Shown: positions 23,960-47,685 of the stretch, piece by piece | Numbering within the stretch: the first letter of the stretch is position 1 | Layout of the letters: each line of letters opens with the position of its first letter | Source of the DNA: a virus | Taxonomy: Duplodnaviria > Heunggongvirae > Uroviricota > Caudoviricetes | Length of the DNA: 47,685 nucleotides | Virus record (IMG/VR): IMGVR_UViG_2513237200_000007 | Reading direction: 5' to 3' (one strand) | The notes under the pieces: model-generated | Seen by the model: the letters and a program-made list of their open reading frames with translations, nothing else | Database searches by the model: none | Told to the model about the DNA's origin: nothing | Program-made: the position numbers and the translations under genes

Positions 23960-24136
23960 CGCGGGTTTTCGCTATTTATGAAAATTTTCCGGTTTAAGGC
24001 ATTTCCGTTCTTCTTCGTCGTAACTTAATGTTTTTATTTAAAATACCCCCTGAAAAGAAAGGAAACGACAGGTGCTGAAAACGAGCTTTTGGGCCTCTGT
24101 CGTTTCCTTTCTCTGTTTTTGGCCGTGGAATGAACA

Positions 24137-24656: not shown

Positions 24657-24682
<26 letters not shown>
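24137..24682 (+). CDS. nu1: terminase small subunit Nu1
   Basis: 181 aa, MEVNKKQLADIFGASIRTIQNWQEQGMPVLRGGGKGNEVLYDSAAV..., near-identical to lambda Nu1 as recalled. Confidence 0.95.
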
Positions 24683-28363
<3,681 letters not shown>

Positions 28364-28383
<20 letters not shown>

Positions 28384-29683: not shown

Positions 29684-29692
29684 GGGATGTTT

Positions 29693-30025
29693 ATGACGAG
29701 CAAAGAAACCTTTACCCATTACCAGCCGCTGGGCAACAGTGACCCGGCTCATACCGCAACCGCGCCCGGCGGATTGAGTGCGAAAGCGCCTGCAATGACC
29801 CCGCTGATGCTGGACACCTCCAGCCGTAAGCTGGTTGCGTGGGATGGCACCACCGACGGTGCTGCCGTTGGCATTCTTGCGGTTGCTGCTGACCAGACCA
29901 GCACCACGCTGACGTTCTACAAGTCCGGCACGTTCCGTTATGAGGATGTGCTCTGGCCGGAGGCTGCCAGCGACGAGACGAAAAAACGGACCGCGTTTGC
30001 CGGAACGGCAATCAGCATCGTTTAA
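29693..30025 (+). CDS. D: head decoration protein D
   Basis: 110 aa from [41 protein letters not shown]... Confidence 0.95.
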
Positions 30026-30046
30026 CTTTACCCTTCATCACTAAAG

Positions 30047-30067
30047 GCCGCCTGTGCGGCTTTTTTT
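30047..30067 (+). terminator. hairpin plus T-run between D and E (attenuator-like)
   Basis: GCCGC-CTGT-GCGGC followed by TTTTTTT, just upstream of the E start. Confidence 0.4.
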
Positions 30068-30080
30068 ACGGGATTTTTTT

Positions 30081-31106
30081 ATGTCGATGTACACAACCGC
30101 CCAACTGCTGGCGGCAAATGAGCAGAAATTTAAGTTTGATCCGCTGTTTCTGCGTCTCTTTTTCCGTGAGAGCTATCCCTTCACCACGGAGAAAGTCTAT
30201 CTCTCACAAATTCCGGGACTGGTAAACATGGCGCTGTACGTTTCGCCGATTGTTTCCGGTGAGGTTATCCGTTCCCGTGGCGGCTCCACCTCTGAATTTA
30301 CGCCGGGATATGTCAAGCCGAAGCATGAAGTGAATCCGCAGATGACCCTGCGTCGCCTGCCGGATGAAGATCCGCAGAATCTGGCGGACCCGGCTTACCG
30401 CCGCCGTCGCATCATCATGCAGAACATGCGTGACGAAGAGCTGGCCATTGCTCAGGTCGAAGAGATGCAGGCAGTTTCTGCCGTGCTTAAGGGCAAATAC
30501 ACCATGACCGGTGAAGCCTTCGATCCGGTTGAGGTGGATATGGGCCGCAGTGAGGAGAATAACATCACGCAGTCCGGCGGCACGGAGTGGAGCAAGCGTG
30601 ACAAGTCCACGTATGACCCGACCGACGATATCGAAGCCTACGCGCTGAACGCCAGCGGTGTGGTGAATATCATCGTGTTCGATCCGAAAGGCTGGGCGCT
30701 GTTCCGTTCCTTCAAAGCCGTCAAGGAGAAGCTGGATACCCGTCGTGGCTCTAATTCCGAGCTGGAGACAGCGGTGAAAGACCTGGGCAAAGCGGTGTCC
30801 TATAAGGGGATGTATGGCGATGTGGCCATCGTCGTGTATTCCGGACAGTACGTGGAAAACGGCGTCAAAAAGAACTTCCTGCCGGACAACACGATGGTGC
30901 TGGGGAACACTCAGGCACGCGGTCTGCGCACCTATGGCTGCATTCAGGATGCGGACGCACAGCGCGAAGGCATTAACGCCTCTGCCCGTTACCCGAAAAA
31001 CTGGGTGACCACCGGCGATCCGGCGCGTGAGTTCACCATGATTCAGTCAGCACCGCTGATGCTGCTGGCTGACCCTGATGAGTTCGTGTCCGTACAACTG
31101 GCGTAA
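30081..31106 (+). CDS. E: major capsid protein E
   Basis: 341 aa from MSMYTTAQLLAANEQKFKFDPLFLRLFFRESYPF... Confidence 0.95.
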   Translation: MSMYTTAQLLAANEQKFKFDPLFLRLFFRESYPFTTEKVYLSQIPGLVNMALYVSPIVSGEVIRSRGGSTSEFTPGYVKPKHEVNPQMTLRRLPDEDPQNLADPAYRRRRIIMQNMRDEELAIAQVEEMQAVSAVLKGKYTMTGEAFDPVEVDMGRSEENNITQSGGTEWSKRDKSTYDPTDDIEAYALNASGVVNIIVFDPKGWALFRSFKAVKEKLDTRRGSNSELETAVKDLGKAVSYKGMYGDVAIVVYSGQYVENGVKKNFLPDNTMVLGNTQARGLRTYGCIQDADAQREGINASARYPKNWVTTGDPAREFTMIQSAPLMLLADPDEFVSVQLA

Positions 31107-31147
31107 TCATGGCCCTTCGGGGCCATTGTTTCTCTGTGGAGGAGTCC

Positions 31148-31546
31148 ATGACGAAAGATGAACTGATTGCCCGTCTCCGCTCGCTGGGTGAACAACTGAA
31201 CCGTAATGTCAGCCTGACGGGGACGAAAGAAGAACTGGCGCTCCGTGTGGCAGAGCTGGAAGAGGAGCTTGATGACACGGATGAAACTGCCGGTCAGGAC
31301 ACCCCTCTCAGCCGGGAAAATGTGCTGACCGGACATGAAAATGAGGTGGGATCAGCGCAGCCGGATACCGTGATTCTGGATACGTCTGAACTGGTCACGG
31401 TCGTGGCACTGGTGAAGCTGCATACTGATGCACTTCACGCCACGCGGGATGAACCTGTGGCATTTGTGCTGCCGGGAACGGCGTTTCGTGTCTCTGCCGG
31501 TGTGGCAGCCGAAATGACAGAGCGCGGCCTGGCCAGAATGCAATAA
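31148..31546 (+). CDS. FI: DNA packaging protein FI
   Basis: 132 aa from MTKDELIARLRSLGEQLNRNVSLTGTKEELALRVAELEEEL... Confidence 0.9.
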   Translation: MTKDELIARLRSLGEQLNRNVSLTGTKEELALRVAELEEELDDTDETAGQDTPLSRENVLTGHENEVGSAQPDTVILDTSELVTVVALVKLHTDALHATRDEPVAFVLPGTAFRVSAGVAAEMTERGLARMQ

Positions 31547-31557
31547 CGGGAGGCGCT

Positions 31558-31911
31558 GTGGCTGATTTCGATAACCTGTTCGATGCTGCCATTGCCCGCG
31601 CCGATGAAACGATACGCGGGTACATGGGAACGTCAGCCACCATGACATCCGGTGAGCAGTCAGGTGCGGTGATACGTGGTGTTTTTGATGACCCTGAAAA
31701 TATCAGCTATGCCGGACAGGGCGTGCGCGTTGAAGGCTCCAGCCCGTCCCTGTTTGTCCGGACTGATGAGGTGCGGCAGCTGCGGCGTGGAGACACGCTG
31801 ACCATCGGTGAGGAAAATTTCTGGGTAGATCGGGTTTCGCCGGATGATGGCGGAAGTTGTCATCTCTGGCTTGGACGGGGCGTACCGCCTGCCGTTAACC
31901 GTCGCCGCTGA
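31558..31911 (+). CDS. FII: head completion protein FII (GTG start)
   Basis: 117 aa, (M)ADFDNLFDAAIARADETIRGYMGTSATMTSGEQSG... Confidence 0.9.
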   Translation: MADFDNLFDAAIARADETIRGYMGTSATMTSGEQSGAVIRGVFDDPENISYAGQGVRVEGSSPSLFVRTDEVRQLRRGDTLTIGEENFWVDRVSPDDGGSCHLWLGRGVPPAVNRRR

Positions 31912-31922
31912 AAGGGGGATGT

Positions 31923-32501
31923 ATGGCCATAAAAGGTCTTGAGCAGGCCGTTGAAAACCTCAGCCGTATCAGCAGAACGGCGGTGCCTGGTGCCGCCGCA
32001 ATGGCCATTAACCGCGTTGCTTCATCCGCGATATCGCAGTCGGCGTCACAAGTTGCCCGTGAGACAAAGGTACGCCGGAAACTGGTAAAGGAAAGGGCCA
32101 GGCTGAAAAGGGCCACTGTCAAAAATCCGCAGGCCAGAATCAAAGTTAACCGGGGGGATTTGCCCGTAATCAAGCTGGGTAATGCGCGGGTTGTCCTTTC
32201 GCGCCGCAGGCGTCGTAAAAAGGGGCAGCGTTCATCCCTGAAAGGTGGCGGCAGCGTGCTTGTGGTGGGTAACCGTCGTATTCCCGGCGCGTTTATTCAG
32301 CAACTGAAAAATGGCCGGTGGCATGTCATGCAGCGTGTGGCCGGGAAAAACCGTTACCCCATTGATGTGGTGAAAATCCCGATGGCGGTGCCGCTGACCA
32401 CGGCGTTTAAACAAAATATTGAGCGGATACGGCGTGAACGTCTTCCGAAAGAGCTGGGCTATGCGCTGCAGCATCAACTGAGGATGGTAATAAAGCGATG
32501 A
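31923..32501 (+). CDS. Z: tail completion protein Z
   Basis: 192 aa lambda gpZ-like. Confidence 0.9.
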   Translation: MAIKGLEQAVENLSRISRTAVPGAAAMAINRVASSAISQSASQVARETKVRRKLVKERARLKRATVKNPQARIKVNRGDLPVIKLGNARVVLSRRRRRKKGQRSSLKGGGSVLVVGNRRIPGAFIQQLKNGRWHVMQRVAGKNRYPIDVVKIPMAVPLTTAFKQNIERIRRERLPKELGYALQHQLRMVIKR

Positions 32502-32893
32502 AACATACTGAACTCCGTGCAGCCGTACTGGATGCACTGGAGAAGCATGACACCGGGGCGACGTTTTTTGATGGTCGCCCCGCTGTTTTTGATGAGGCGG
32601 ATTTTCCGGCAGTTGCCGTTTATCTCACCGGCGCTGAATACACGGGCGAAGAGCTGGACAGCGATACCTGGCAGGCGGAGCTGCATATCGAAGTTTTCCT
32701 GCCTGCTCAGGTGCCGGATTCAGAGCTGGATGCGTGGATGGAGTCCCGGATTTATCCGGTGATGAGCGATATCCCGGCACTGTCAGATTTGATCACCAGT
32801 ATGGTGGCCAGCGGCTATGACTACCGGCGCGACGATGATGCGGGCCTGTGGAGTTCAGCCGATCTGACTTATGTCATTACCTATGAAATGTGA
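32498..32893 (+). CDS. U: tail terminator protein U
   Basis: 131 aa lambda gpU-like; overlaps Z stop. Confidence 0.9.
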
Positions 32894-32900
32894 GGACGCT

Positions 32901-33641
32901 ATGCCTGTACCAAATCCTACAATGCCGGTGAAAGGTGCCGGGACCACCCTGTGGGTTTATAAGGGGAGCGGTGACCCTTATGCGAATCCGCTTTCAGACG
33001 TTGACTGGTCGCGTCTGGCAAAAGTTAAAGACCTGACGCCCGGCGAACTGACCGCTGAGTCCTATGACGACAGCTATCTCGATGATGAAGATGCAGACTG
33101 GACTGCGACCGGGCAGGGGCAGAAATCTGCCGGAGATACCAGCTTCACGCTGGCGTGGATGCCCGGAGAGCAGGGGCAGCAGGCGCTGCTGGCGTGGTTT
33201 AATGAAGGCGATACCCGTGCCTATAAAATCCGCTTCCCGAACGGCACGGTCGATGTGTTCCGTGGCTGGGTCAGCAGTATCGGTAAGGCGGTGACGGCGA
33301 AGGAAGTGATCACCCGCACGGTGAAAGTCACCAATGTGGGACGTCCGTCGATGGCAGAAGATCGCAGCACGGTAACAGCGGCAACCGGCATGACCGTGAC
33401 GCCTGCCAGCACCTCGGTGGTGAAAGGGCAGAGCACCACGCTGACCGTGGCCTTCCAGCCGGAGGGCGTAACCGACAAGAGCTTTCGTGCGGTGTCTGCG
33501 GATAAAACAAAAGCCACCGTGTCGGTCAGTGGTATGACCATCACCGTGAACGGCGTTGCTGCAGGCAAGGTCAACATTCCGGTTGTATCCGGTAATGGTG
33601 AGTTTGCTGCGGTTGCAGAAATTACCGTCACCGCCAGTTAA
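32901..33641 (+). CDS. V: major tail tube protein V
   Basis: 246 aa from [30 protein letters not shown]...; C-terminal Ig-like domain. Confidence 0.95.
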
Positions 33642-33656
33642 TCCGGAGAGTCAGCG

Positions 33657-34079
33657 ATGTTCCTGAAAACCGAATCATTTGAACATAACGGTGTGACCGT
33701 CACGCTTTCTGAACTGTCAGCCCTGCAGCGCATTGAGCATCTCGCCCTGATGAAACGGCAGGCAGAACAGGCGGAGTCAGACAGCAACCGGAAGTTTACT
33801 GTGGAAGACGCCATCAGAACCGGCGCGTTTCTGGTGGCGATGTCCCTGTGGCATAACCATCCGCAGAAGACGCAGATGCCGTCCATGAATGAAGCCGTTA
33901 AACAGATTGAGCAGGAAGTGCTTACCACCTGGCCCACGGAGGCAATTTCTCATGCTGAAAACGTGGTGTACCGGCTGTCTGGTATGTATGAGTTTGTGGT
34001 GAATGATGCCCCTGAACAGGCAGAGGACGCCGGGCCTGCAGAGCCTGTTTCTGCGGGAAAGTGTTCGACGGTGAGCTGA
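33657..34079 (+). CDS. G: tail assembly chaperone G
   Basis: 140 aa, MFLKTESFEHNGVTVTLSELSALQRIEHLALMKRQ... Confidence 0.9.
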   Translation: MFLKTESFEHNGVTVTLSELSALQRIEHLALMKRQAEQAESDSNRKFTVEDAIRTGAFLVAMSLWHNHPQKTQMPSMNEAVKQIEQEVLTTWPTEAISHAENVVYRLSGMYEFVVNDAPEQAEDAGPAEPVSAGKCSTVS

Positions 34080-34495
34080 GTTTTGCCCTGAAACTGGCGC
34101 GCGAGATGGGGCGACCCGACTGGCGTGCCATGCTTGCCGGGATGTCATCCACGGAGTATGCCGACTGGCACCGCTTTTACAGTACCCATTATTTTCATGA
34201 TGTTCTGCTGGATATGCACTTTTCCGGGCTGACGTACACCGTGCTCAGCCTGTTTTTCAGCGATCCGGATATGCATCCGCTGGATTTCAGTCTGCTGAAC
34301 CGGCGCGAGGCTGACGAAGAGCCTGAAGATGATGTGCTGATGCAGAAAGCGGCAGGGCTTGCCGGAGGCGTTCGTTTTGGCCCGGACGGGAATGAAGTTA
34401 TCCCCGCTTCCCCGGATGTGGCGGACATGACGGAGGATGACGTAATGCTGATGACAGTATCAGAAGGGATCGCAGGAGGAGTCCGGTATGGCTGA
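33657..34495 (+). CDS. T: tail assembly chaperone G-T fusion via programmed -1 frameshift
   Basis: Slippery heptamer GGGAAAG at 34055-34061 near the end of G; the -1 frame (track ORF 34061-34495) continues to just after the H start. Confidence 0.75.
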
Positions 34496-37049
34496 ACCGG
34501 TAGGCGATCTGGTCGTTGATTTAAGTCTGGATGCGGCCAGATTTGACGAGCAGATGGCCAGAGTCAGGCGTCATTTTTCCGGTACGGAAACTGATGCGAA
34601 AAAAACAGCGGCAGTCGTTGAACAGTCGCTGAGCCGACAGGCGCTGGCTGCACAGAAAGCGGGGATTTCCGTCGGGCAGTATAAAGCCGCCATGCGTATG
34701 CTGCCTGCACAGTTCACCGACGTGGCCACGCAGCTTGCAGGCGGGCAAAGTCCGTGGCTGATCCTGCTGCAACAGGGTGGTCAGGTTAAGGACTCCTTCG
34801 GCGGGATGATCCCCATGTTCAGGGGGCTTGCCGGTGCGATCACCCTGCCGATGGTGGGGGCCACCTCGCTGGCGGTGGCGACCGGTGCGCTGGCGTATGC
34901 CTGGTATCAGGGCAACTCAACCCTGTCCGATTTCAACAAAACGCTGGTCCTTTCCGGCAATCAGGCGGGACTGACGGCAGATCGTATTCTGGCCCTGTCC
35001 AGAGCCGGGCAGGCGGCAGGGCTGACGTTTAACCAGACCAGCGAGTCACTCAGCGCACTGGTTAAGGCGGGGGTAAGCGGTGAGGCTCAGATTGCGTCCA
35101 TCAGCCAGAGTGTGGCGCGTTTCTCCTCTGCATCCGGCGTGGAGGTGGACAAGGTCGCTGAAGCCTTCGGGAAGCTGACCACAGACCCGACGTCGGGGCT
35201 GACGGCGATGGCACGCCAGTTCCATAACGTGACGGCGGAGCAGATTGCGTATGTTGCTCAGTTGCAGCGTTCCGGCGATGAAGCCGGGGCATTGCAGGCG
35301 GCGAACGAGGCCGCAACGAAAGGGTTTGATGACCAGACCCGCCGCCTGAAAGAGAACATGGGCACGCTGGAGACCTGGGCAGACAGGACAGCACGGGCAT
35401 TCAAATCCATGTGGGATGCGGTGCTGGATATTGGTCGTCCTGATACCGCGCAGGAGATGCTGATTAAGGCAGAGGCTGCGTTTAAGAAAGCAGACGACAT
35501 CTGGAATCTGCGCAAGGATGATTATTTTGTTAACGATGAAGCGCGGGCGCGTTACTGGGATGATCGTGAAAAGGCCCGTCTTGCGCTTGAAGCCGCCCGA
35601 AAGAAGGCTGAGCAGCAGACTCAACAGGACAAAAATGCGCAGCAGCAGAGCGATACCGAAGCGTCACGGCTGAAATATACCGAAGAGGCGCAGAAGGCTT
35701 ACGAACGGCTGCAGACGCCGCTGGAGAAATATACCGCCCGTCAGGAAGAACTGAACAAGGCACTGAAAGACGGGAAAATCCTGCAGGCGGATTACAACAC
35801 GCTGATGGCGGCGGCGAAAAAGGATTATGAAGCGACGCTGAAAAAGCCGAAACAGTCCGGCGTGAAGGTGTCTGCGGGCGATCGTCAGGAAGACAGTGCT
35901 CATGCTGCCCTGCTGACGCTTCAGGCAGAACTCCGGACGCTGGAGAAGCATGCCGGAGCAAATGAGAAAATCAGCCAGCAGCGCCGGGATTTGTGGAAGG
36001 CGGAGAGTCAGTTCGCGGTACTGGAGGAGGCGGCGCAACGTCGCCAGCTGTCTGCACAGGAGAAATCCCTGCTGGCGCATAAAGATGAGACGCTGGAGTA
36101 CAAACGCCAGCTGGCTGCACTTGGCGACAAGGTTACGTATCAGGAGCGCCTGAACGCGCTGGCGCAGCAGGCGGATAAATTCGCACAGCAGCAACGGGCA
36201 AAACGGGCCGCCATTGATGCGAAAAGCCGGGGGCTGACTGACCGGCAGGCAGAACGGGAAGCCACGGAACAGCGCCTGAAGGAACAGTATGGCGATAATC
36301 CGCTGGCGCTGAATAACGTCATGTCAGAGCAGAAAAAGACCTGGGCGGCTGAAGACCAGCTTCGCGGGAACTGGATGGCAGGCCTGAAGTCCGGCTGGAG
36401 TGAGTGGGAAGAGAGCGCCACGGACAGTATGTCGCAGGTAAAAAGTGCAGCCACGCAGACCTTTGATGGTATTGCACAGAATATGGCGGCGATGCTGACC
36501 GGCAGTGAGCAGAACTGGCGCAGCTTCACCCGTTCCGTGCTGTCCATGATGACAGAAATTCTGCTTAAGCAGGCAATGGTGGGGATTGTCGGGAGTATCG
36601 GCAGCGCCATTGGCGGGGCTGTTGGTGGCGGCGCATCCGCGTCAGGCGGTACAGCCATTCAGGCCGCTGCGGCGAAATTCCATTTTGCAACCGGAGGATT
36701 TACGGGAACCGGCGGCAAATATGAGCCAGCGGGGATTGTTCACCGTGGTGAGTTTGTCTTCACGAAGGAGGCAACCAGCCGGATTGGCGTGGGGAATCTT
36801 TACCGGCTGATGCGCGGCTATGCCACCGGCGGTTATGTCGGTACACCGGGCAGCATGGCAGACAGCCGGTCGCAGGCGTCCGGGACGTTTGAGCAGAATA
36901 ACCATGTGGTGATTAACAACGACGGCACGAACGGGCAGATAGGTCCGGCTGCTCTGAAGGCGGTGTATGACATGGCCCGCAAGGGTGCCCGTGATGAAAT
37001 TCAGACACAGATGCGTGATGGTGGCCTGTTCTCCGGAGGTGGACGATGA
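34488..37049 (+). CDS. H: tail tape-measure protein H
   Basis: 853 aa lambda gpH-like; extended coiled-coil region. Confidence 0.95.
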   Translation: MAEPVGDLVVDLSLDAARFDEQMARVRRHFSGTETDAKKTAAVVEQSLSRQALAAQKAGISVGQYKAAMRMLPAQFTDVATQLAGGQSPWLILLQQGGQVKDSFGGMIPMFRGLAGAITLPMVGATSLAVATGALAYAWYQGNSTLSDFNKTLVLSGNQAGLTADRILALSRAGQAAGLTFNQTSESLSALVKAGVSGEAQIASISQSVARFSSASGVEVDKVAEAFGKLTTDPTSGLTAMARQFHNVTAEQIAYVAQLQRSGDEAGALQAANEAATKGFDDQTRRLKENMGTLETWADRTARAFKSMWDAVLDIGRPDTAQEMLIKAEAAFKKADDIWNLRKDDYFVNDEARARYWDDREKARLALEAARKKAEQQTQQDKNAQQQSDTEASRLKYTEEAQKAYERLQTPLEKYTARQEELNKALKDGKILQADYNTLMAAAKKDYEATLKKPKQSGVKVSAGDRQEDSAHAALLTLQAELRTLEKHAGANEKISQQRRDLWKAESQFAVLEEAAQRRQLSAQEKSLLAHKDETLEYKRQLAALGDKVTYQERLNALAQQADKFAQQQRAKRAAIDAKSRGLTDRQAEREATEQRLKEQYGDNPLALNNVMSEQKKTWAAEDQLRGNWMAGLKSGWSEWEESATDSMSQVKSAATQTFDGIAQNMAAMLTGSEQNWRSFTRSVLSMMTEILLKQAMVGIVGSIGSAIGGAVGGGASASGGTAIQAAAAKFHFATGGFTGTGGKYEPAGIVHRGEFVFTKEATSRIGVGNLYRLMRGYATGGYVGTPGSMADSRSQASGTFEQNNHVVINNDGTNGQIGPAALKAVYDMARKGARDEIQTQMRDGGLFSGGGR

Positions 37050-37375
37050 AGACCTTCCGCTGGAAAGTGAAACCCGGTATGGATGTGGCTTCGATCCCTT
37101 CTGTAAGAAAGGTGCGCTTTGGTGATGGCTATTCTCAGCGAGCGCCTGCCGGGCTGAATGCCAACCTGAAAACGTACAGCGTGACGCTTTCTGTCCCCCG
37201 TGAGGAGGCCACGGTACTGGAGTCGTTTCTGGAAGAGCACGGGGGCTGGAAATCCTTTCTGTGGACGCCGCCTTATGAGTGGCGGCAGATAAAGGTGACC
37301 TGCGCAAAATGGTCGTCGCGGGTCAGTATGCTGCGTGTTGAGTTCAGCGCAGAGTTTGAACAGGTGGTGAACTGA
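37046..37375 (+). CDS. M: tail tip protein M
   Basis: 109 aa; ATGA overlap with H. Confidence 0.9.
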   Translation: MKTFRWKVKPGMDVASIPSVRKVRFGDGYSQRAPAGLNANLKTYSVTLSVPREEATVLESFLEEHGGWKSFLWTPPYEWRQIKVTCAKWSSRVSMLRVEFSAEFEQVVN

Positions 37376-38073
37376 TGCAGGATATCCGGCAGGAAACACT
37401 GAATGAATGCACCCGTGCGGAGCAGTCGGCCAGCGTGGTGCTCTGGGAAATCGACCTGACAGAGGTCGGTGGAGAACGTTATTTTTTCTGTAATGAGCAG
37501 AACGAAAAAGGTGAGCCGGTCACCTGGCAGGGGCGACAGTATCAGCCGTATCCCATTCAGGGGAGTGGTTTTGAACTGAATGGCAAAGGCACCAGTACGC
37601 GCCCCACACTGACGGTTTCTAACCTGTACGGTATGGTCACCGGGATGGCGGAAGATCTGCAGAGTCTGGTCGGTGGAACGGTGGTCCGGCGTAAGGTTTA
37701 CGCCCGTTTTCTGGATGCGGTGAACTTCGTCAACGGAAACAGTGGCGCCGATCCGGAGCAGGAGGTGATCAGCCGCTGGCGCATTGAGCAGTGCAGCGAA
37801 CTGAGCGCGGTGAGTGCCTCTTTTGTACTGTCCACGCCGACGGAAACGGACGGTGCTGTTTTTCCGGGACGTATCATGCTGGCCAACACCTGCACCTGGA
37901 CCTATCGCGGTGATGAGTGCGGTTATCACGGTCCGGCAGTCGCGGATGAATATGACCAGCCAACGTCCGATATCACGAAGGATAAATGCAGCAAATGCCT
38001 GAGCGGTTGTAAGTTCCGCAATAACGTCGGCAACTTTGGCGGCTTCCTTTCCATTAACAAACTTTCGCAGTAA
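37375..38073 (+). CDS. L: tail tip protein L
   Basis: 232 aa lambda gpL-like with C-terminal Cys cluster. Confidence 0.9.
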   Translation: MQDIRQETLNECTRAEQSASVVLWEIDLTEVGGERYFFCNEQNEKGEPVTWQGRQYQPYPIQGSGFELNGKGTSTRPTLTVSNLYGMVTGMAEDLQSLVGGTVVRRKVYARFLDAVNFVNGNSGADPEQEVISRWRIEQCSELSAVSASFVLSTPTETDGAVFPGRIMLANTCTWTYRGDECGYHGPAVADEYDQPTSDITKDKCSKCLSGCKFRNNVGNFGGFLSINKLSQ

Positions 38074-38078
38074 ATCCC

Positions 38079-38822
38079 ATGACACAGACAGAATCAGCGA
38101 TTCTGGCGCACGCCCGGCGATGTGCGCCAGCGGAGTCGTGCGGCTTCGTGGTAAGCACGCCGGAGGGGGAAAGATATTTTCCCGGCGTGAATATTTCCGG
38201 TGAGCCGGAGGATTATTTCCGGATGGCTCCGGAGGACTGGCTGCAGGCAGAAATGCAGGGTGAGATTGTGGCGCTGGTCCACAGCCACCCCGGTGGTCTG
38301 CCCTGGCTGAGTGAGGCTGACCGGCGGCTGCAGGTGCAGAGTGATTTGCCGTGGTGGCTGGTCTGCCGGGGGGCGATTCATAAGTTCCGCTGTGTGCCGC
38401 ATCTCACCGGGCGGCGCTTTGAGCACGGGGTGACGGACTGTTACACGCTGTTCCGGGATGCTTATCATCTGGCGGGGATTGAGATGCCGGATTTTCATCG
38501 CGGGGATGACTGGTGGCGTCACGGTCAGAATCTCTATCTGGATAATCTGGAGGCCACAGGGCTGTATCAGGTGCCGTTGTCAGCGGCGCAGCCGGGCGAT
38601 GTGCTGCTGTGCTGTTTTGGTTCATCGGTGCCGAATCATGCCGCCATTTACTGTGGTGATGGCGAGCTGCTGCACCATATTCCTGAACAACTGAGCAAAC
38701 GAGAGAGGTACACCGACAAATGGCAGCGACGCACACACTCCCTCTGGCGTCACCGGGCATGGCGCGCATCTGCCTTTACGGGGATTTACAACGATTTGGT
38801 CGCCGCATCGACCTTCGTGTGA
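38079..38822 (+). CDS. K: tail tip assembly protein K (JAB/MPN and NlpC/P60-like motifs)
   Basis: 247-aa ORF; HSHPGG JAMM-like motif and downstream Cys/His peptidase-like region; 3' end overlaps I. The true start could be internal. Confidence 0.85.
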   Translation: MTQTESAILAHARRCAPAESCGFVVSTPEGERYFPGVNISGEPEDYFRMAPEDWLQAEMQGEIVALVHSHPGGLPWLSEADRRLQVQSDLPWWLVCRGAIHKFRCVPHLTGRRFEHGVTDCYTLFRDAYHLAGIEMPDFHRGDDWWRHGQNLYLDNLEATGLYQVPLSAAQPGDVLLCCFGSSVPNHAAIYCGDGELLHHIPEQLSKRERYTDKWQRRTHSLWRHRAWRASAFTGIYNDLVAASTFV

Positions 38823-39391
38823 AAACGGGGGCTGAAGCCATCCGGGCACTGGCCACACAGCTCCCGGCGTTTCGTCAGAAACTGAGCGACGGCTGGTATC
38901 AGGTACGGATTGCCGGGCGGGACGTCAGCACGTCCGGGTTAACGGCGCAGTTACATGAGACTCTGCCTGATGGCGCTGTGATTCATATTGTTCCCAGAGT
39001 CGCCGGGGCCAAGTCAGGTGGCGTATTCCAGATTGTCCTGGGGGCTGCCGCCATTGCCGGATCATTCTTTACCGCCGGAGCCACCCTTGCAGCATGGGGG
39101 GCAGCCATTGGGGCCGGTGGTATGACCGGCATCCTGTTTTCTCTCGGTGCCAGTATGGTGCTCGGTGGTGTGGCGCAGATGCTGGCACCGAAAGCCAGAA
39201 CTCCCCGTACACAGACAACGGATAACGGTAAGCAGAACACCTATTTCTCCTCACTGGATAACATGGTTGCCCAGGGCAATGTTCTGCCTGTTCTGTACGG
39301 GGAAATGCGCGTGGGGTCACGCGTGGTTTCTCAGGAGATCAGCACGGCAGACGAAGGGGACGGTGGTCAGGTTGTGGTGATTGGTCGCTGA
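38720..39391 (+). CDS. I: tail tip assembly protein I
   Basis: 223 aa with ubiquitin-like N-terminus and Gly/Ala-rich hydrophobic C-terminal region; lambda gpI-like. Confidence 0.9.
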   Translation: MAATHTLPLASPGMARICLYGDLQRFGRRIDLRVKTGAEAIRALATQLPAFRQKLSDGWYQVRIAGRDVSTSGLTAQLHETLPDGAVIHIVPRVAGAKSGGVFQIVLGAAAIAGSFFTAGATLAAWGAAIGAGGMTGILFSLGASMVLGGVAQMLAPKARTPRTQTTDNGKQNTYFSSLDNMVAQGNVLPVLYGEMRVGSRVVSQEISTADEGDGGQVVVIGR

Positions 39392-39410
39392 TGCAAAATG
39401 TTTTATGTGA

Positions 39411-39431
39411 AACCGCCTGCGGGCGGTTTTG
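39411..39431 (+). terminator. hairpin plus T-run between I and J
   Basis: AACCGCC-TGCG-GGCGGTT followed by TT. Confidence 0.4.
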
Positions 39432-39451
39432 TCATTTATGGAGCGTGAGGA

Positions 39452-42400
39452 ATGAGTAAAGGAAGCAGTAAGGGGCATACCCCGCGCGAAGCGAAGGACA
39501 ACCTGAAGTCCACGCAGTTGCTGAGTGTGATCGATGCCATCAGCGAAGGGCCGGTTGAAGGTCCGGTGGATGGATTAAAAAGCGTGCTGCTGAACAGTAC
39601 GCCGGTGCTGGACACTGAGGGGAATACCAACATCTCCGGTGTCACGGTGGTGTTCCGTGCCGGTGAGCAGGAGCAGACACCGCCGGAGGGGTTTGAATCC
39701 TCCGGCTCCGAGACGGTGTTGGGTACGGAAGTGAAATACGACACGCCGATCACCCGCGCCATCACGTCGGCAAACATCGACCGACTGCGCTTTACCTTCG
39801 GTGTGCAGGCACTGGTGGAAACCACCTCAAAGGGGGACCGGAATCCGTCGGAAGTTCGCCTGCTGGTTCAGATACAGCGTAATGGTGGCTGGGTGACGGA
39901 AAAAGATATCACCATTAAGGGCAAAACCACCTCGCAGTATCTGGCCTCGGTGGTGGTGGATAACCTGCCGCCGCGCCCGTTTAATATCCGGATGCGCAGA
40001 ATGACGCCGGACAGCACCACAGACCAGCTGCAGAACAAAACGCTCTGGTCGTCATACACCGAAATCATCGATGTGAAACAGTGCTACCCGAACACGGCAC
40101 AGGTCGGCGTGCAGGTGGATTCGGAGCAGTTCGGCAGCCAGCAGGTGAGCCGTAATTATCATCTTCGCGGGCGCATTCTGCAGGTGCCGTCGAATTATAA
40201 CCCGCAGACGCGGCAATACAGCGGTATCTGGGACGGAACGTTAAAACCGGCATACAGCAACAACATGGCCTGGTGTCTGTGGGATATGCTGACCCACCCG
40301 CGCTACGGCATGGGGAAACGTCTTGGTGCGGCAGATGTGGATAAATGGGCGCTGTATGTCATCGGCCAGAATTGCGACCAGTCGGTGCCGGACGGCTTTG
40401 GCGGTACGGAGCCGCGCATCACCTGTAACGCTTACCTGACCACACAACGTAAGGCGTGGGATGTGCTCAGTGATTTCTGCTCGGCGATGCGCTGTATGCC
40501 GGTATGGAACGGGCAGACGCTGACGTTCGTGCAGGACCGACCGTCGGATAAGGTGTGGACCTATAACCGCAGTAATGTGGTGATGCCGGATGATGGCGCG
40601 CCGTTCCGCTACAGCTTCAGCGCCCTGAAAGACCGCCATAATGCCGTTGAGGTGAACTGGATTGACCCGGATAACGGCTGGGAGACGGCAACAGAGCTTG
40701 TGGAGGACTCGCAGGCCATTGCCCGTTACGGTCGTAACGTCACGAAGATGGATGCCTTTGGCTGTACCAGCCGGGGGCAGGCACACCGCGCCGGGCTGTG
40801 GCTGATTAAAACGGAGCTGCTGGAAACGCAGACGGTGGACTTCAGCGTGGGTGCCGAAGGGCTTCGCCATGTGCCGGGCGATGTCATTGAAATCTGTGAT
40901 GATGACTATGCCGGTATCAGCACCGGCGGGCGCGTGCTGGCGGTAAACAGTCAGACCCGGACGCTGACGCTCGACCGTGAAATCACGCTGCCATCCTCCG
41001 GTACCACGCTGATAAGCCTGGTTGACGGAAGTGGCAATCCGGTCAGCGTGGAGGTTCAGTCCGTCACCGACGGCGTGAAGGTGAAAGTGAGCCGGGTTCC
41101 TGACGGCGTTGCTGAATACAGCGTGTGGGGGCTGAAGCTGCCGACGCTGCGCCAGCGCCTGTTCCGCTGCGTGAGTATCCGTGAGAACGACGACGGCACG
41201 TATGCCATCACCGCCGTGCAGCATGTACCGGAAAAAGAAGCCATCGTGGATAACGGGGCGCACTTTGACGGCGACCAGAGCGGCACGGTGAATGGTGTCA
41301 CGCCGCCAGCGGTGCAGCACCTGACTGCCGAAGTCACCGCAGACAGTGGGGAATACCAGGTGCTGGCCCGCTGGGACACGCCGAAGGTGGTGAAGGGCGT
41401 GAGTTTCATGCTTCGCCTGACCGTGGCAGCGGATGACGGCAGTGAGCGGCTGGTCAGCACGGCCCGGACGGCGGAAACCACATACCGCTTCACGCAACTG
41501 GCGCCAGGGAACTACAGGCTGACAGTCCGGGCGGTAAATGCGTGGGGGCAGCAGGGCGATCCGGCGTCGGTATCGTTCCGGATTGCCGCACCGGCAGCAC
41601 CGTCGAGGATTGAGCTGACGCCGGGCTATTTTCAGATAACCGCCACGCCGCATCTTGCCGTTTATGACCCGACGGTACAGTTTGAGTTCTGGTTCTCGGA
41701 AAAGCGGATTACCGATATCAGGCAGGTTGAAACCACAGCCCGCTATCTTGGTACGGCGCTGTACTGGATAGCCGCCAGTATCAATATCAAACCGGGCCAT
41801 GATTATTACTTTTATATCCGCAGTGTGAACACCGTTGGCAAATCGGCATTCGTGGAGGCCGTCGGTCGGGCGAGCGATGATGCGGAAGGTTACCTGGATT
41901 TTTTCAAAGGCAAGATAACCGAATCCCATCTCGGTAAAGAGCTGCTGGAAAAAGTTGATCTGACGGAGGATAACGCCAGCAGACTGGATGAGTTTTCGAA
42001 AGAGTGGAAGGACGCTAACGATAAATGGAATGCCATGTGGGGCGTCAAAATTGAGCAGACCAAAGACGGCAAACATTATGTCGCGGGTATTGGCCTCAGC
42101 ATGGAGGACACGGAGGAAGGCAAGCTGAGCCAGTTTCTGGTTGCCGCTAACCGTATCGCGTTTATTGACCCGGCAAACGGGAATGAAACGCCGATGTTTG
42201 TGGCGCAGGGCAACCAGATATTCATGAACGACGTGTTCCTGAAGCGCCTGACAGCCCCCACCATTACCAGCGGTGGCAGCCCTCCGGTATTTTCCCTGAC
42301 ATCAGACGGAAAGCTGACCGCTAAAAATGCGGATATCAGTGGTAGTGTGAATGCGAACTCAGGAACGCTCAACAATGTCACGATTAACCAGAACTGTACG

Positions 42401-42865
42401 ATTAAGGGCATGCTGGAGGCGACTCAGGTCAGAGGTGACTTCGTTAAAGCTGTATCCAAATCATTTCCGAAACAGGCTGGTACGTGGGGTAACACGGAAA
42501 CACCAAACGGGACGGTTACAGTCACCATCAGCGATGATCATAACTTTGACCGTCAAATCATTATTCCGCCCATTATCTTTAACGGAATAGCGTATAGCGA
42601 TCCGGGAAGTGGTAATAACCCGGGAGGTACAAGATACACGGGTTATGGTTTTGAAGTTCGCAAAAACGGTGTATTAATCGCATCCAGAGAAACTAAAGGG
42701 GCCATTCCCGGTAGCTACAGTGCGGTTATTGATATGCCGAGTGGCAGGGGAAGCGTCACTCTGGAGTTTAAGGTTTTCCATAAAGGCAATCAGCGGGCAG
42801 GTAATATCACCGACTGTACGGTGATTGTGACCAAAAAAGCGGCTTCAGGCATCAGTATTCGTTGA
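39452..42865 (+). CDS. J: central tail fibre / host specificity protein J with divergent C-terminal receptor-binding domain
   Basis: 1137 aa; most of the protein is lambda gpJ-like (fibronectin-III-like repeats), but the last roughly 150 aa differ from lambda J as recalled. Confidence 0.95.
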
Positions 42866-42935: not shown

Positions 42936-43535
42936 ATGCGTAAAGTTTGTGCCGCCATTTTGTCCGCAGCCATTTGTCTGGCCGTATCCGGTGCGCCTGC
43001 ATGGGCGTCTGAACATCAGTCCACGCTGAGCGCGGGGTATCTTCATGCCCGGACCAACGTTCCCGGCAGTGATGATCTGAACGGGATTAACGTGAAATAC
43101 CGTTATGAGTTTACGGATACGCTGGGGCTGGTGACGTCATTCAGCTATGCAGGAGACAAGAATCGCCAGTTGACCCATTACAGCGATACCCGCTGGCATG
43201 AAGATTCCGTTCGTAACCGCTGGTTCAGCGTAATGGCGGGGCCGTCTGTGCGCGTGAATGAATGGTTCAGCGCGTATGCGATGGCGGGTGTGGCTTACAG
43301 CCGTGTGTCGACTTTCTCCGGGGATTATCTCCGCGTAACTGACAACAAGGGGAAAACGCACGACGTGCTGACCGGAAGTGATGACGGTCGCCACAGCAAC
43401 ACGTCTCTGGTGTGGGGAGCTGGCGTGCAGTTTAACCCGACCGAATCCGTGGCCATTGATATTGCTTATGAAGGCTCCGGCAGTGGCGACTGGCGCACTG
43501 ACGGTTTCATCGTGGGTGTCGGTTATAAGTTCTGA
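42936..43535 (+). CDS. lom: Lom/Ail-family outer-membrane beta-barrel protein
   Basis: 199 aa with signal peptide (MRKVCAAILSAAICLAVSGAPAWA), alternating beta-strand pattern and C-terminal aromatic (YKF). Confidence 0.85.
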   Translation: MRKVCAAILSAAICLAVSGAPAWASEHQSTLSAGYLHARTNVPGSDDLNGINVKYRYEFTDTLGLVTSFSYAGDKNRQLTHYSDTRWHEDSVRNRWFSVMAGPSVRVNEWFSAYAMAGVAYSRVSTFSGDYLRVTDNKGKTHDVLTGSDDGRHSNTSLVWGAGVQFNPTESVAIDIAYEGSGSGDWRTDGFIVGVGYKF

Positions 43536-43588: not shown

Positions 43589-43599
43589 GTGGGGTGAAT

Positions 43600-46500
43600 A
43601 TGGCAGTAAAGATTTCAGGTGTACTGAAAGACGGCACAGGAAAACCGGTACAGAACTGCACAATCCAGCTGAAAGCAAAACGTAACAGCACCACGGTGGT
43701 GGTGAACACGCTGGCCTCAGAAAATCCGGATGAAGCCGGGCGTTACAGCATGGACGTTGAGTACGGTCAGTACAGCGTTATTCTGTTGGTGGAAGGATTC
43801 CCGCCGTCACATGCCGGGACCATCACCGTGTATGAAGATTCCCGACCCGGTACGCTGAATGATTTTCTCGGTGCCATGACGGAGGATGATGCCCGTCCGG
43901 AGGCTCTGCGCCGTTTTGAACTGATGGTGGAAGAGGTGGCGCGTAACGCGTCCGCGGTGGCACAGAACACGGCAGCCGCGAAGAAGTCAGCCAGTGATGC
44001 CGGCACATCTGCCAGTGAGGCGGCAACCCATGCGACTGATGCTGCAGGCTCAGCGCGTGCAGCCAGCACGTCAGCCGGACAGGCCGCGACGTCGGCTCAG
44101 GAGGCGTCTTCCAGCGCAGGAACGGCATCAACAAAGGCCACTGAAGCATCAAAAAGTGCTGCCGCTGCAGAGTCCTCAAAAAGCGCGGCGGCCACCAGTG
44201 CCGGTGCCGCGAAAACGTCAGAAACGAATGCTGCAGCGTCACAAAAATCAGCAGCCACTTCTGCATCCACTGCGACGACGAAAGCGTCAGAAGCCGCCAC
44301 TTCAGCCCGGGATGCGGCGGCCTCAAAAGAGGCAGCGAAATCATCAGAAACGAACGCATCATCAAGCGCCAGTAGTGCCGCTTCCTCGGCAACGGCGGCA
44401 GCAAATTCTGCGAAGGCGGCAAAAACGTCCGAGACGAACGCCAGGTCTTCTGAAACGGCAGCGGAACAGAGCGCCTCAGCTGCGGCAGACTCTGAGACAA
44501 CAGCTGCATCATCGGCCCGTGAGGCGTCCATTAAGGCAGAGGAGGCAGCAGTCAGTGCCACCGCCGCCGGAAAATCGGCAGAAAGCGCCGCATCATCCGC
44601 TTCAACAGCCACAACGAAGGCTGGCGAAGCCACTGAACAGGCCAGCGCAGCAGTGAGGTCTGCTTCCGCAGCGAAGACATCCGAAACGAACGCGAAAGCG
44701 TCGGAAACCAGCGCAGAATCCTCAAAAACGGCTGCCGCATCGTCCGCCAGTTCGGCGGCGTCATCGGCATCATCGGCGTCTGCTTCAAAAGATGAGGCGA
44801 CCAGACAGGCGTCAGCAGCGAGGGGCAGCGCCACGACGGCATCCACGAAGGCGACAGAGGCTGCTGGCAGTGCGGCAGCGGCAGCACAGAGCAAAAGTAC
44901 GGCAGAATCCGCAGCAACGCGCGCCGAGACAGCAGCAAAACGGGCAGAGGATATTGCATCCGCCGTGGCGCTTGAGGATGCGAGCACGACGAAAAAGGGG
45001 ATAGTACAGCTCAGTAGTGCGACTAACAGCACTTCCGAGTCACTGGCGGCAACACCAAAAGCCGTTAAGGCCGCGTATGACCTGGCTAACGGGAAATACA
45101 CCGCACAGGATGCAACGACAGCACAGAAAGGGATAATCCAGCTAAGCAGCGCGACCAACAGCACGTCTGAAACGCTTGCCGCGACACCAAAGGCAGTAAA
45201 AGCAGCCAATGACAATGCTGAGAAACGTCTGCAGAAAGATCAGAACGGTGCGGATATCCCTGGCAAAGATACCTTTACGAAAAATATTGGTGCCTGCCGT
45301 GCCTTCGGTGGGTCAGTAAGCACAACAACAGGAAACTGGACGACTGCACAGTTTATCGAGTGGCTGGATTCTCAGGGAGCATTTAACCATCCATACTGGA
45401 TGTGCAAGGGTTCCTGGTCTTATGGCAATAATAAAATCATTACTGATACTGACTGCGGTAATATTCATCTCGCCGGAGCTGTCATTGAAGTAATGGGGAT
45501 AAAGTCAGCGATGACGATCCGCATTACCACACCGACCACCTCCACTGGTGGTGGAACAACTAACGCCCAGTTTACCTATATTAATCACGGAACAGATTAT
45601 TCACCTGGCTGGCGAAGGGACTATAACTCCAGAAATAAGCCAACGGCATCAGAGATCGGGGCGTTACCGTCAGGTGGAACAGCAGTATCATCAGTTAATC
45701 TGGCTTCAAAAGGTCGGGTAACCGCGCTGACAGACAATACGCAGGGGGCAGCAGGTCTTGAGTTATACGAGGTGTATAACAACGGATATCCAACAGCGTA
45801 TGGAAATATCATTCACCTGAAAGGGATGACAGCCGTTGGCGAAGGTGAGTTACTCATCGGCTGGAGTGGTACAAGCGGTGCTCATGCTCCGGCATTTATT
45901 CGTTCACGACGGGATACGACCGACGCAAACTGGTCGCCGTGGGCGCAGCTTTACACCTCGGCTCATCCTCCTGCAGAGTTTTATCCAGTCGGTGCACCAA
46001 TCCCGTGGCCATCAGATACCGTTCCGTCTGGTTATGCCCTGATGCAGGGGCAGACTTTTGACAAATCTGCATACCCGAAACTTGCAGTTGCTTATCCGTC
46101 AGGCGTGATCCCTGATATGCGTGGCTGGACGATTAAGGGCAAGCCCGCCAGTGGTCGGGCCGTATTATCTCAGGAACAGGACGGCATTAAATCGCACACC
46201 CACAGCGCCAGCGCATCCAGTACGGATTTGGGGACGAAAACCACATCGTCGTTTGATTACGGAACCAAATCCACGAATAACACCGGGGCGCATACCCATA
46301 GTATTAGCGGGACCGCAAATAGTGCCGGTGCGCACCAACACAAGAGTTCCGGTGCATTTGGTGGCACGAACACGAGCATTTTCCCTAATGGTTATACCGC
46401 GATTTCAAATCTAAGCGCGGGGATTATGAGCACAACAAGCGGTAGTGGCCAGACTCGTAATGCAGGGAAGACATCATCAGATGGTGCTCATACCCACTCG

Positions 46501-46674
46501 CTGTCCGGCACTGCTGCAAGCGCAGGCGCGCATGCACATACTGTCGGTATTGGTGCTCATACGCACTCCGTTGCGATTGGTTCACATGGACACACCATCA
46601 CCGTTAACGCTGCTGGTAACGCGGAAAACACCGTCAAAAACATCGCATTTAACTATATTGTGAGGCTTGCATAA
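43600..46674 (+). CDS. stf: side tail fibre protein Stf
   Basis: About 1024 aa from [26 protein letters not shown] (lambda stf-like N-terminus); long Ala/Ser/Thr-rich repetitive shaft; two tandem copies of KKGI(V/I)[11 protein letters not shown](S/T)[11 protein letters not shown]; His-rich C-terminal region. Confidence 0.9.
43970..44990 (+). repeat. low-complexity Ala/Ser/Thr/Lys/Glu-rich repetitive coding region within stf
   Basis: Recurrent motifs ([21 protein letters not shown]) at protein and DNA level; long spurious antisense ORFs arise here. Confidence 0.6.
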
Positions 46675-47249
46675 TGGCATTCAGAATGAGTGAACAACCA
46701 CGGACCATAAAAATTTATAATCTGCTGGCCGGAACTAATGAATTTATTGGTGAAGGTGATGCATATATTCCGCCTCATACAGGTCTGCCAGCAAACAGTA
46801 CCGATATTGCACCGCCAGATATTCCGGCTGGCTTCGTGGCTGTTTTCAACAGTGATGAGTCATCGTGGCATCTCGTTGAAGATCATCGGGGTAAAACGGT
46901 TTATGACGTGGCTTCCGGCGACGCGTTATTTATTTCTGAACTCGGTCCGTTACCGGAAAATGTTACCTGGTTATCGCCGGAAGGGGAGTTTCAGAAGTGG
47001 AACGGCACAGCCTGGGTGAAGGATACGGAAGCAGAAAAACTGTTCCGGATCCGGGAGGCGGAAGAAACAAAAAACAACCTGATGCAGGTAGCCAGTGAGC
47101 ATATTGCGCCGCTTCAGGATGCTGCAGATCTGGAAATTGCAACGGAGGAAGAAATCTCGTTGCTGGAAGCATGGAAAAAGTATCGGGTATTGCTGAACCG
47201 TGTTGATACGTCAACTGCACAGGATATTGAATGGCCAGCACTGCCGTAG
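46674..47249 (+). CDS. tfa: tail fibre assembly protein Tfa
   Basis: 191 aa, [78 protein letters not shown]...; start overlaps stf stop (TAATG). Confidence 0.9.
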
Positions 47250-47346: not shown

Positions 47347-47685
47347 TTATATGTCAGGTGTCTGAAGTTTTGCTTTGGCTCTTAAAATGGTTTGCCGCGA
47401 GGTTTTGAATTCCCGGGCAATGGCACTTATACTTACACCTGACTTAATTCGTTCGAATACCGCCTGTTTCTGTTCTTCATTTAACACAGGTGGTCGACCA
47501 AAACGTTTCCCTGCGCCGCGGGCTCTTACTATCCCGGAATGAGTGCGTTCAAGTAAAAGGTCTCGTTCAAATTCAGCGACTGCTGAAATTACTTGCATCA
47601 TCATTTTTCCTGTTGGACTGGTCAGGTCAATGCCCCCCAATGCTAAGCAATGCACTCTGATACCTGTTTCGGTCAGTTGTTCCAC
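47347..47685 (-). CDS. pin: Pin/Gin/Hin-family serine DNA invertase, C-terminal part (N-terminus beyond window end)
   Basis: C-terminal HTH region [44 protein letters not shown] and resolvase-domain residues ([35 protein letters not shown]); ORF runs to the window edge. Confidence 0.8.

Follow-up and report, generated by a model that had tools for sequence, protein, structure and literature searches.

A side tail fibre gene in a lambdoid prophage of E. coli W

The 47 685-nucleotide stretch of viral DNA analyzed here (the window) comes from a lambdoid prophage of E. coli W (Qin/ydfJ) and carries a side tail fibre gene, stf, followed by a tail fibre assembly gene, tfa, and part of a serine invertase gene (Table 1). 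The stf open reading frame (ORF) starts with ATG, encodes 1024 aa and has no internal stops, with an in-frame GTG at position 43594 as a second possible start. Its product is 100% identical to WP_000279140.1, annotated as "phage tail protein" in E. coli W, and the RefSeq annotation of that strain gives the same coding sequence (CDS). The ORF list and the RefSeq CDS thus confirm the uninterrupted frame of about 1024 aa given in the preliminary description, and the Pfam domains and the coupling to tfa further support its reading as an intact side tail fibre gene. Within the shaft-coding region, long ORFs of up to 372 aa also occur in alternative frames and on the complementary strand; they were set aside as artefacts of a T-poor composition (11% T).

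The order of genes is that of a lambda-type Stf region, with J (39452-42865) and lom (42936-43535), both intact, upstream of stf and tfa, and this J-lom-stf-tfa arrangement is shared with Ur-lambda, whose Stf has 774 aa. The stop codon of stf (TAA, 46672-46674) and the start codon of tfa (ATG, 46674-46676) overlap by one nucleotide in a TAATG, bearing out the earlier statement that stf is followed by a coupled tfa. Tfa shares 95% of its residues with its lambda counterpart, and its C-terminus matches Mu U in 5yvq_B; from its sequence we infer a role as chaperone of the fibre tip. The invertase gene, annotated as pinQ in E. coli W, is convergent with tfa. The prophage to which stf belongs is apparently complete.

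Table 1. Features of stf and the adjoining genes (positions are those of the window)
Feature	Position	Strand	Evidence
stf, side tail fibre gene, intact	43600..46674	+	ORF list, protein identity, PHROG tail fibre families
N-terminal tail-attachment domain, lambda gpStfN-type, aa 1-134	43600..44001	+	Pfam PF08400 phage_tail_N
Coiled-coil shaft of about 50 heptads, rich in Ala and Ser, aa ~108-457	43921..44970	+	periodicity, heptad table
9-nt microsatellite, GCATCATCG-type, 2.4 copies, coding ASS-ASS	44756..44777	+	TRF
Two tandem phage tail fibre repeats, 44 aa/132 nt each	44975..45213 (copies 44975-45081, 45107-45213)	+	Pfam PF03406 x2
Mu S'-like middle domain, aa 546-695	45235..45684	+	PDB 8ju3 (Mu tail fibre S/S')
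Predicted knob-like beta domain, aa 696-793	45685..45978	+	AF2 model, Foldseek, PHROG 22609 + 37852
T4 gp37-type receptor-binding tip (collar, HxH needle, head), aa 794-1024	45979..46671	+	PDB 2xgf, Pfam Collar PF07484
HxH motif starts	46195, 46291, 46333, 46489, 46531, 46558, 46585	+	
Hypervariable head segment, aa 913-960	46336..46479	+	divergence among relatives
tfa, tail fibre assembly chaperone, 191 aa	46674..47249	+	Pfam Caudo_TAP E = 3.6e-43
Serine invertase of the pinQ type, C-terminal 112 aa, truncated at the window end	47347..47685	-	Pfam Resolvase + HTH_7

A lambda-type anchor and a strict heptad shaft

The N-terminal domain matches the Pfam model over its entire length (1-134 of 134, E = 1.4e-71), and residues 1-94 are 92.6% identical to the same residues of the lambda tail fibre chain in PDB 9e7m; for the domain, identity to lambda Stf is 92-93%. 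In Ur-lambda, the StfN domain forms a dodecameric collar on the tail, and the plan of Stf comprises this N domain, a linker, a proximal coiled coil and a gp37-like distal part, with binding to OmpC (PMC12617516).

The shaft is as rich in alanine and serine as the preliminary description had it (37% Ala, 23% Ser and 12% Thr over aa 111-455). Its Fourier spectrum peaks at exactly 3.5 and 7.0 aa, which none of 2000 shuffles matched, and when written in rows of seven it keeps the register x-S-A-x-x-A-x uninterrupted over about 50 heptads, with alanine at position 5 in 96% and at position 2 in 71% of the heptads. The shaft is homologous to the 'proximal coiled-coil domain' of Ur-lambda Stf and probably forms a coiled coil as modeled for that protein, whose model also suggests a helical trimer. 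The degenerate short repeats described earlier are therefore real at the protein level, with a period of strictly seven residues, but they do not amount to a tandem repeat in the DNA. Direct repeats in the shaft DNA are spaced by multiples of 21 nt, yet in-register 21-nt units have a mean nucleotide identity of 44%, the longest exact word that recurs is 11 nt, and TRF reported no tandem array in the shaft DNA other than the 22-nt microsatellite. A classical slippage-prone DNA tract was dropped as a candidate on account of the 44% unit identity.

Shaft length is conserved in most relatives

We surveyed shaft length in complete genomes, using one spread sample of 3589 E. coli records. Of its 49 matches with full coverage, about 47 span exactly 1141 nt, at identities down to 87.5%, and K-12 stfR has a shaft of identical length at 93.7% nucleotide identity. 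The length of the shaft is thus mostly conserved rather than hypervariable. Two further complete-genome variants are shorter by 315 and 336 nt, corresponding to 15 and 16 heptads, and relatives that are 92-100% identical include forms lacking 7, 14, 21, 28, 70, 84 or 98 aa. In addition, the 9-nt microsatellite, at aa 387, differs by -3 or +3 aa in at least 15 protein clusters. Relatives show ten shaft indels that reach 7 aa or more, and seven of these change the length by whole multiples of 7 aa (p = 1e-4), a bias that fits selection preserving the register of the coiled coil.

The preliminary description had called the shaft prone to slippage or recombination and had proposed comparing repeat count across related prophages for length variation; the count proved to be the same in most relatives, and the rare in-frame variants, mostly whole-heptad deletions, lend the claim weak support against a nearly constant span and the lack of true tandem repeats. 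The stronger form of this idea is that the shaft is a contingency-type tract, in which frequent slippage or unequal recombination rapidly alters fibre length and tunes reach to the host surface. The variants by whole heptads and by the ±3-aa microsatellite in such close relatives, the complete-genome losses of 15 and 16 heptads, the position of deletion junctions at recurring shaft motifs, and the recurrence of certain variants on many contigs (15 for the 940-aa form of Stf) all speak for it. Against them stand the dominance of the 1141-nt span, K-12 stfR included, the DNA-level divergence of the units described above, and the 2-5 nt of microhomology at the two deletion junctions examined, and purifying selection acting on rare deletions could explain the heptad bias. 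We consider a contingency tract quite unlikely.

Fibre repeats, a Mu S'-like domain and a predicted knob

Distal to the shaft, PF03406 (Phage_fiber_2) matches twice (E = 6.2e-37), in agreement with the two tandem fibre repeats noted before, although the unit is not 30 aa: the true period is 44 aa, or 132 nt. The two DNA copies are 72% identical (direct repeat family D5), and relatives carry one, two or three. Residues 97-172 of Mu Sc resemble the fibre repeat that precedes the next domain, for which PDB 8ju3 was the sole match, aa 546-695 having no Pfam match at E ≤ 10. The alignment of aa 539-695 with residues 178-334 of S' has 69% identity over 155 aligned positions. This Mu S'-like domain is missing from the Stf proteins of lambda, Turner and Chlobot.

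For aa 696-793, sequence searches of PDB and Pfam at E ≤ 10 gave no match. An AF2 monomer model of this region has a mean pLDDT of 79.6, rising to about 90 over residues 21-105, and contains six strands. The best Foldseek matches are all knob-type domains of phage fibres (T4 gp34, R-pyocin fibres and the Mu fibre), and since they are weak (E = 0.01-0.35, TM ≤ 0.57), the modeled fold is only suggestive of a knob.

A T4 gp37-type tip with a variable head

The preliminary description had hinted at an unusual distal domain and had named a match to a standard, characterized fibre tip as evidence to the contrary. The distal 231 aa match the tip of T4 gp37 and lambda Stf: the alignment of aa 794-1024 with residues ~811-1026 of gp37 in 2XGF runs over the full length (E = 1.3e-83), and identity is 71% overall, or 79% when the head is left out. 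Pfam Collar matches at aa 798-845. The finding is thus an ordinary one in this respect. An 11-residue C-terminal stretch is also conserved between the two tips, whereas gp37 is unrelated to Stf elsewhere, and its chaperone is of the gp38 type in contrast to the lambda Tfa type of Stf (PMC9659904).

All 14 histidines of the tip fall within seven HxH motifs, at aa 866, 898, 912, 964, 978, 987 and 996. Shuffled sequences had a mean of 0.79 motifs, and none of 20 000 shuffles reached seven. In the 2xgf alignment, each motif pairs one-to-one with an HxH motif of gp37, where they bind seven iron ions (PMC11705849). This pairing supports the earlier suggestion that the motifs bind metal: they are very likely metal sites, for iron by homology to gp37, and metal binding by such motifs is already known. 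Lambda Stf has eight HxH motifs rather than seven, and its needle is 87-90% identical.

The head segment diverges sharply from its surroundings. It is 19-35% identical to the heads of Stf proteins that otherwise share 92-100%, and 27% identical to the gp37 head, the insert of which is 16 aa shorter, against 79% for the flanks; indels among relatives are concentrated at aa 921-955. In the gp37/lambda family of tips, the collar is followed by a conserved stretch of the last ~215 aa, and the family combines a variable specificity region with an adjoining chaperone, and in gp37 that region occupies the position equivalent to the Stf head (PMC9659904). By analogy, aa 913-960 presumably set receptor specificity. 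A tblastn search with the head recovered only mEp332 (100%), ev099 (98.5%) and distant relatives (≤55%), and the literature consulted assigns no receptor to mEp332, ev099 or the distant head relatives. Because the allele is unlike those of lambda and T4 (23-27% identity), binding to OmpC cannot be assumed.

Comparison with related fibres

Besides the anchor and the needle, lambda Stf has in common with the E. coli W protein a homologous Ala/Ser heptad coiled coil, the fibre repeat and the collar. It differs in a shaft that is 105 aa (15 heptads) shorter, in having one fibre repeat instead of two, in its middle region, which is replaced in E. coli W Stf by the Mu S'-like domain and the knob-like module, and in its head (only 23% identity). 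The Mu fibre resembles Stf in the middle modules, yet it ends in a Mu-type rather than a gp37-type tip. Stf of the isolated phages PhiR42_1 and mEp460 (mEp460_ev081) matches the E. coli W protein domain by domain at 92-100% identity, with the exception of the head (35%), and in both phages stf, tfa and pin are arranged as in the E. coli W prophage. In mEp332, whose head allele is identical, the annotation breaks stf up into more than one CDS. A literature search found no paper for the PhiR and mEp phage records.

A side tail fibre that probably works as in Ur-lambda

With high confidence, we interpret the protein as the side tail fibre of the E. coli W lambdoid prophage, most likely working as in Ur-lambda, and none of the results contradicts this view. 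The intact gene, the homologies of its domains, the heptad period, the conserved HxH motifs, the coupling to tfa and the natural length variants are shown directly; for this fibre we infer the trimeric state, iron binding, length, chaperone dependence and class of receptor. Three Stf chains would form one fibre, docked onto the tail tip region by aa 1 to about 100. The alanine-core coiled coil of about 50 heptads would make a thin rod, roughly 50 nm long at 0.148 nm per residue compared with about 35 nm in lambda, which the two fibre repeats, the Mu S'-like domain and the knob-like beta domain would lengthen. The C-terminal 231 aa would fold into the gp37-type collar, needle and head, where the seven HxH motifs of each chain may hold seven metal ions along the trimer axis (iron in gp37) and the hypervariable head may touch the receptor, which would be LPS or a porin of the outer membrane. 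The translationally coupled Tfa would be needed as chaperone for trimerization of the tip. Such a fibre would provide fast, reversible adsorption, after which J would bind its receptor.

The length variants may be read further as a non-neutral 'length ladder', made of whole-heptad losses (7 to 112 aa), the stutter-adding ±3-aa microsatellite and one to three fibre repeats, along which selection would match the reach of the fibre to how thick the O-antigen or capsule is. The head allele shared with mEp332 and ev099 might also bind a receptor other than OmpC. We regard this extension as unlikely.

Another reading is that stf is a remnant of a prophage in decay, or now serves the host (for instance in the manner of StfE2, an anti-phage protein that masks a receptor), and provides no working virion fibre. 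Rac and Qin of K-12 are examples of the defective prophages in which many E. coli stf genes lie, and a chimeric e14 Stf fragment has been reported to block adsorption of T2 (PMC12529663). The full-length ORF with its coupled tfa, the intact J and lom upstream, the heptad register kept over the whole shaft, and the near-identical genes in the same arrangement in isolated phages argue against decay or co-option, and we think either very unlikely here.

The remaining reading, a Pin-driven invertible host-range switch of the Mu G, P1 C or e14 P type in which pinQ flips the distal fibre segment, would account for an invertase gene 97 bp 3' of tfa, for the middle of Stf being homologous to the variable part of Mu S' and beginning just past the position of the Mu crossover site, and for the literature that ties stf exchange to invertases (PMC3945230), but we judge it extremely improbable, as the interval between tfa and pin is a 97-bp spacer alone with no inverted stf'/tfa' copy, the best flanking inverted-repeat pair (24 nt at 75% complementarity) is not above chance level, the e14 pix core, with up to three mismatches allowed, has no match in the window or in the 15-kb locus of E. 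coli W, and PinQ of K-12 reportedly works in trans on the P segment of e14 (PMC12529663). The pix core query was the e14 sequence derived from K-12; no pix/gix-like site or inverted-repeat pair was found in the window or the 6 kb downstream, and the gix sites and invertible segment that accompany S' in Mu (G(-) form) were not found at stf.

The working side tail fibre gene that we favor is intact yet ordinary, a lambda-like prophage gene assembled from modules already characterized. Its significance outside annotation is slight: the analysis offers a residue-level module map of a common E. coli prophage fibre, which may aid host-range prediction and the engineering of fibre chimeras from lambda or T4. 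It further documents that the shaft is conserved in length in most E. coli prophages and that variation, when present, comes mainly in whole heptads.

The stf-tfa locus and its genomic context

The side tail fibre gene stf was correctly identified in the preliminary description as intact and coupled to tfa, the tail fibre assembly chaperone gene: it is a single reading frame of 1024 codons, and its stop and the tfa start share one base. A second possible start, an in-frame GTG at 43594, lies two codons before the ATG. The stf product matches three Pfam families, namely phage_tail_N (aa 1-134, E = 1.4e-71), Phage_fiber_2 in two copies (E = 6.2e-37) and Collar (aa 798-845), and Caudo_TAP and Ail/Lom are matched by the tfa product and by the protein encoded upstream of stf, respectively. 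Tfa shares 95% identity with its lambda counterpart and has a C-terminus that matches Mu U.

Features of the stf-tfa locus and modules of the stf product
Feature	Position	Strand	Evidence or remark
stf ORF, 1024 aa, uninterrupted	43600-46674	+	ATG start at 43600
tfa ORF	46674-47249	+	ATG overlaps stf TAA (46672-46674) by one base
pinQ-type serine invertase, Resolvase/HTH_7 fragment	47347-47685, runs past window end	-	Pfam; 9754-10344 in the 15-kb E. coli W locus (L001)
Lambda tail fibre N-domain, 9e7m	aa 1-94		92.6% identity
Mu S constant part	aa 490-565		PDB sequence match
Mu S', G(-) variable part, 8ju3 residues 178-334	aa 539-695		69% identity
T4 gp37 receptor-binding tip, 2xgf	aa 794-1024		End-to-end alignment, E = 1.3e-83

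The 3081-nt stf stretch is 100% identical to Escherichia coli W and several derivative genomes, and its product is annotated in E. coli W as ‘phage tail protein’ (WP_000279140.1). The gene order there is L, a K-like peptidase gene, I, J, lom, stf, tfaQ and pinQ, with ydfK, ynfT and a truncated ydfJ beyond pinQ, at L001 11681-12964 and past the end of the window; the ydfJ copy lacks its N-terminus. These last three genes mark the Qin attachment region of K-12, so the prophage occupies the Qin locus, and what is only the Qin remnant in K-12 has as its counterpart in E. coli W a lambdoid prophage that appears to be full-length. The same arrangement, at 94-98% nucleotide identity, was found in the isolated lambdoid phages PhiR42_1, mEp460_ev081, PhiR26_1 and Salmonella phage SPF_0923. 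One 4.83-Mb genome labelled ‘Escherichia coli strain DH5alpha’ (NZ_CP026085.1), close in size to W, matches E. coli W at 100% identity over stf-tfa, and its strain label may be wrong, the comparison covering this locus only. The sharp G+C step in the window, from about 36-52% at 1-24000 (early, regulatory and lysis side) to 55-60% over the genes of the head and tail (24000-42000), is typical of lambdoid mosaic structure. No tRNA genes were found in the window by ARAGORN.

A modular fibre with a gp37-type tip

Module boundaries were taken from a PDB sequence search, and identities were computed separately. The segment at aa 696-793 has no sequence match in PDB or Pfam and matches tail-fibre PHROGs. 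Its AlphaFold2 model, built on an alignment of 19 partial homologues, is a six-stranded beta domain (mean pLDDT 79.6, about 90 over the core) whose best Foldseek matches all belong to the knob-type domains of phage fibres (T4 gp34, R1/R2 pyocin fibres and the Mu fibre). Because these matches are weak (E = 0.01-0.35, TM <= 0.57), we call the module knob-like only tentatively. Residues 546-567 (45235-45300) match the point at which the variable part of Mu S' begins, directly behind the Mu gix crossover site (FIQNLGL). Here stf has one diverged copy without a recognisable crossover site, a state suggestive of an ancient exchange with an invertible fibre of the Mu type.

The preliminary description had named a match to a standard, characterised fibre tip as grounds for refutation, and the distal domain is such a tip, of the gp37 type. 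Identity to gp37 is 71% overall, 79% outside the head (aa 913-960) and 27% within it. The His-rich text quoted earlier is present as given, and its possible metal binding is very probable, as judged by alignment, and long known rather than new. Seven HxH motifs (aa 866, 898, 912, 964, 978, 987 and 996) hold all 14 histidines of the last 231 residues; shuffled tips contain 0.79 motifs on average, and none of 20000 reached seven. Each motif aligns to a gp37 HxH in 2xgf, and the gp37 motifs bind seven iron ions according to the summary of Bartual et al. 2010 in PMC11705849. The gp37/lambda-Stf tip family comprises >200 phage receptor-binding proteins with conserved flanks, a divergent specificity segment and an adjoining gp38/Tfa-type chaperone gene (PMC9659904), a description that the W protein matches exactly. 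Its tip flanks share 75-100% identity with those of other Stf proteins, and its head 19-35%, even with PhiR42_1. Phage mEp332 has an identical head allele, and ev099 one that is 98.5% identical. In plaque-forming mEp332 (PV340541.1), stf is annotated as two CDSs about 680 nt apart (1507-2187 and 2871-4907), which suggests a disrupted or mis-annotated gene and would be consistent with laboratory growth not requiring Stf.

The adjacent invertase

The pinQ-type gene is convergent with tfa, 97 bp away. No second, inverted fibre-tip/chaperone set lies near stf-tfa, no convincing inverted-repeat pair flanks it in the window, and the e14 pix core, derived from K-12, is matched neither in the window nor in the 15-kb E. 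coli W locus. We therefore rejected an invertible host-range segment at stf-tfa. With no pix/gix-like sites or invertible segment near it, pinQ seems to be an ‘orphan’ in cis. PinQ of K-12 reportedly acts in trans on the e14 P segment, inverting it and so blocking T2 adsorption (PMC12529663). Lambda-Rac and lambda-Qin recombination is also documented at the stf region, as is ancient exchange among unrelated phages (PMC3945230).

Periodicity and length of the shaft

The shaft, between the N-domain and the fibre repeats, is rich in Ala (37%), Ser (23%) and Thr (12%) over aa 111-455. Power spectra of its Ala and Ser/Thr positions have their maxima at exactly 3.5 and 7.0 residues, with a power that none of 2000 shuffles reached. 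When the sequence is written seven residues to a line, the register x-S-A-x-x-A-x runs unbroken from about aa 108 to 457; of the two core positions, one is 96% Ala and the other 71%. Such a pattern is characteristic of a coiled coil with an alanine core. Between the anchors EEVARNAS and AVALEDA the shaft has 344 aa in W compared with 239 aa in lambda, a difference of exactly 15 heptads.

The DNA that encodes the shaft is not a tandem repeat. The only TRF array is 22 nt long with a 9-nt unit (44756-44777), in-register 21-nt units share a mean identity of 44%, no exact word longer than 11 nt is repeated, and degenerate repeat families are spaced by multiples of 21 nt. Long ORFs also occur in other frames or on the opposite strand (372 aa, 44097-45215, minus; 229 aa, 43823-44512, minus; 220 aa, 43994-44656, plus). 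They are most likely composition artefacts and not genes, stop codons being scarce in shaft DNA that is T-poor (11%) and whose AT skew (0.40) is the strongest of the whole window.

Length variation was surveyed in the best 120 protein clusters, each aligned pairwise to the W protein. Among these, shaft deletions of 7, 14, 21, 28, 70, 84 and 98 aa were found, along with 9, 12 and 75 aa; of the ten events that span 7 aa or more, seven are whole multiples of 7 aa (binomial p = 1e-4). The same clusters show a microsatellite change of -3 or +3 aa at aa 387, the site of the 9-nt array, and small head indels restricted to aa 921-955. They also lose or gain a fibre-repeat unit to give one, two or three copies; the two tandem repeats described earlier are matched by Phage_fiber_2, but the unit is 44 aa and not 30 aa. 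The junctions of the deletions lie at recurrent motifs, AAKTSETNA and GSAR.AA among them, and two variants are clean deletions in DNA (252 nt and 210 nt) with exact microhomology of only 2-5 nt.

In a sample spread across the 3589 E. coli records matching the shaft, about 47 of 49 full-coverage matches, K-12 stfR (93.7% identity) among them, have a span of exactly 1141 nt, and their identities run from 100% to 87.5%. The two clear exceptions lack 336 nt and 315 nt, or 16 and 15 heptads. The canonical length is therefore strongly conserved, with a small minority of variants that mostly keep the heptad register, and a hypermutable tract is not supported. The proposal of degenerate repeats prone to slippage or recombination stands to the extent that rare heptad-quantised variants exist, but not as a tandem-repeat DNA of variable length. 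The shaft is a known coiled coil of mostly invariant length, and its variants support recombination or deletion that happens occasionally and is constrained because the coiled coil has to be kept.
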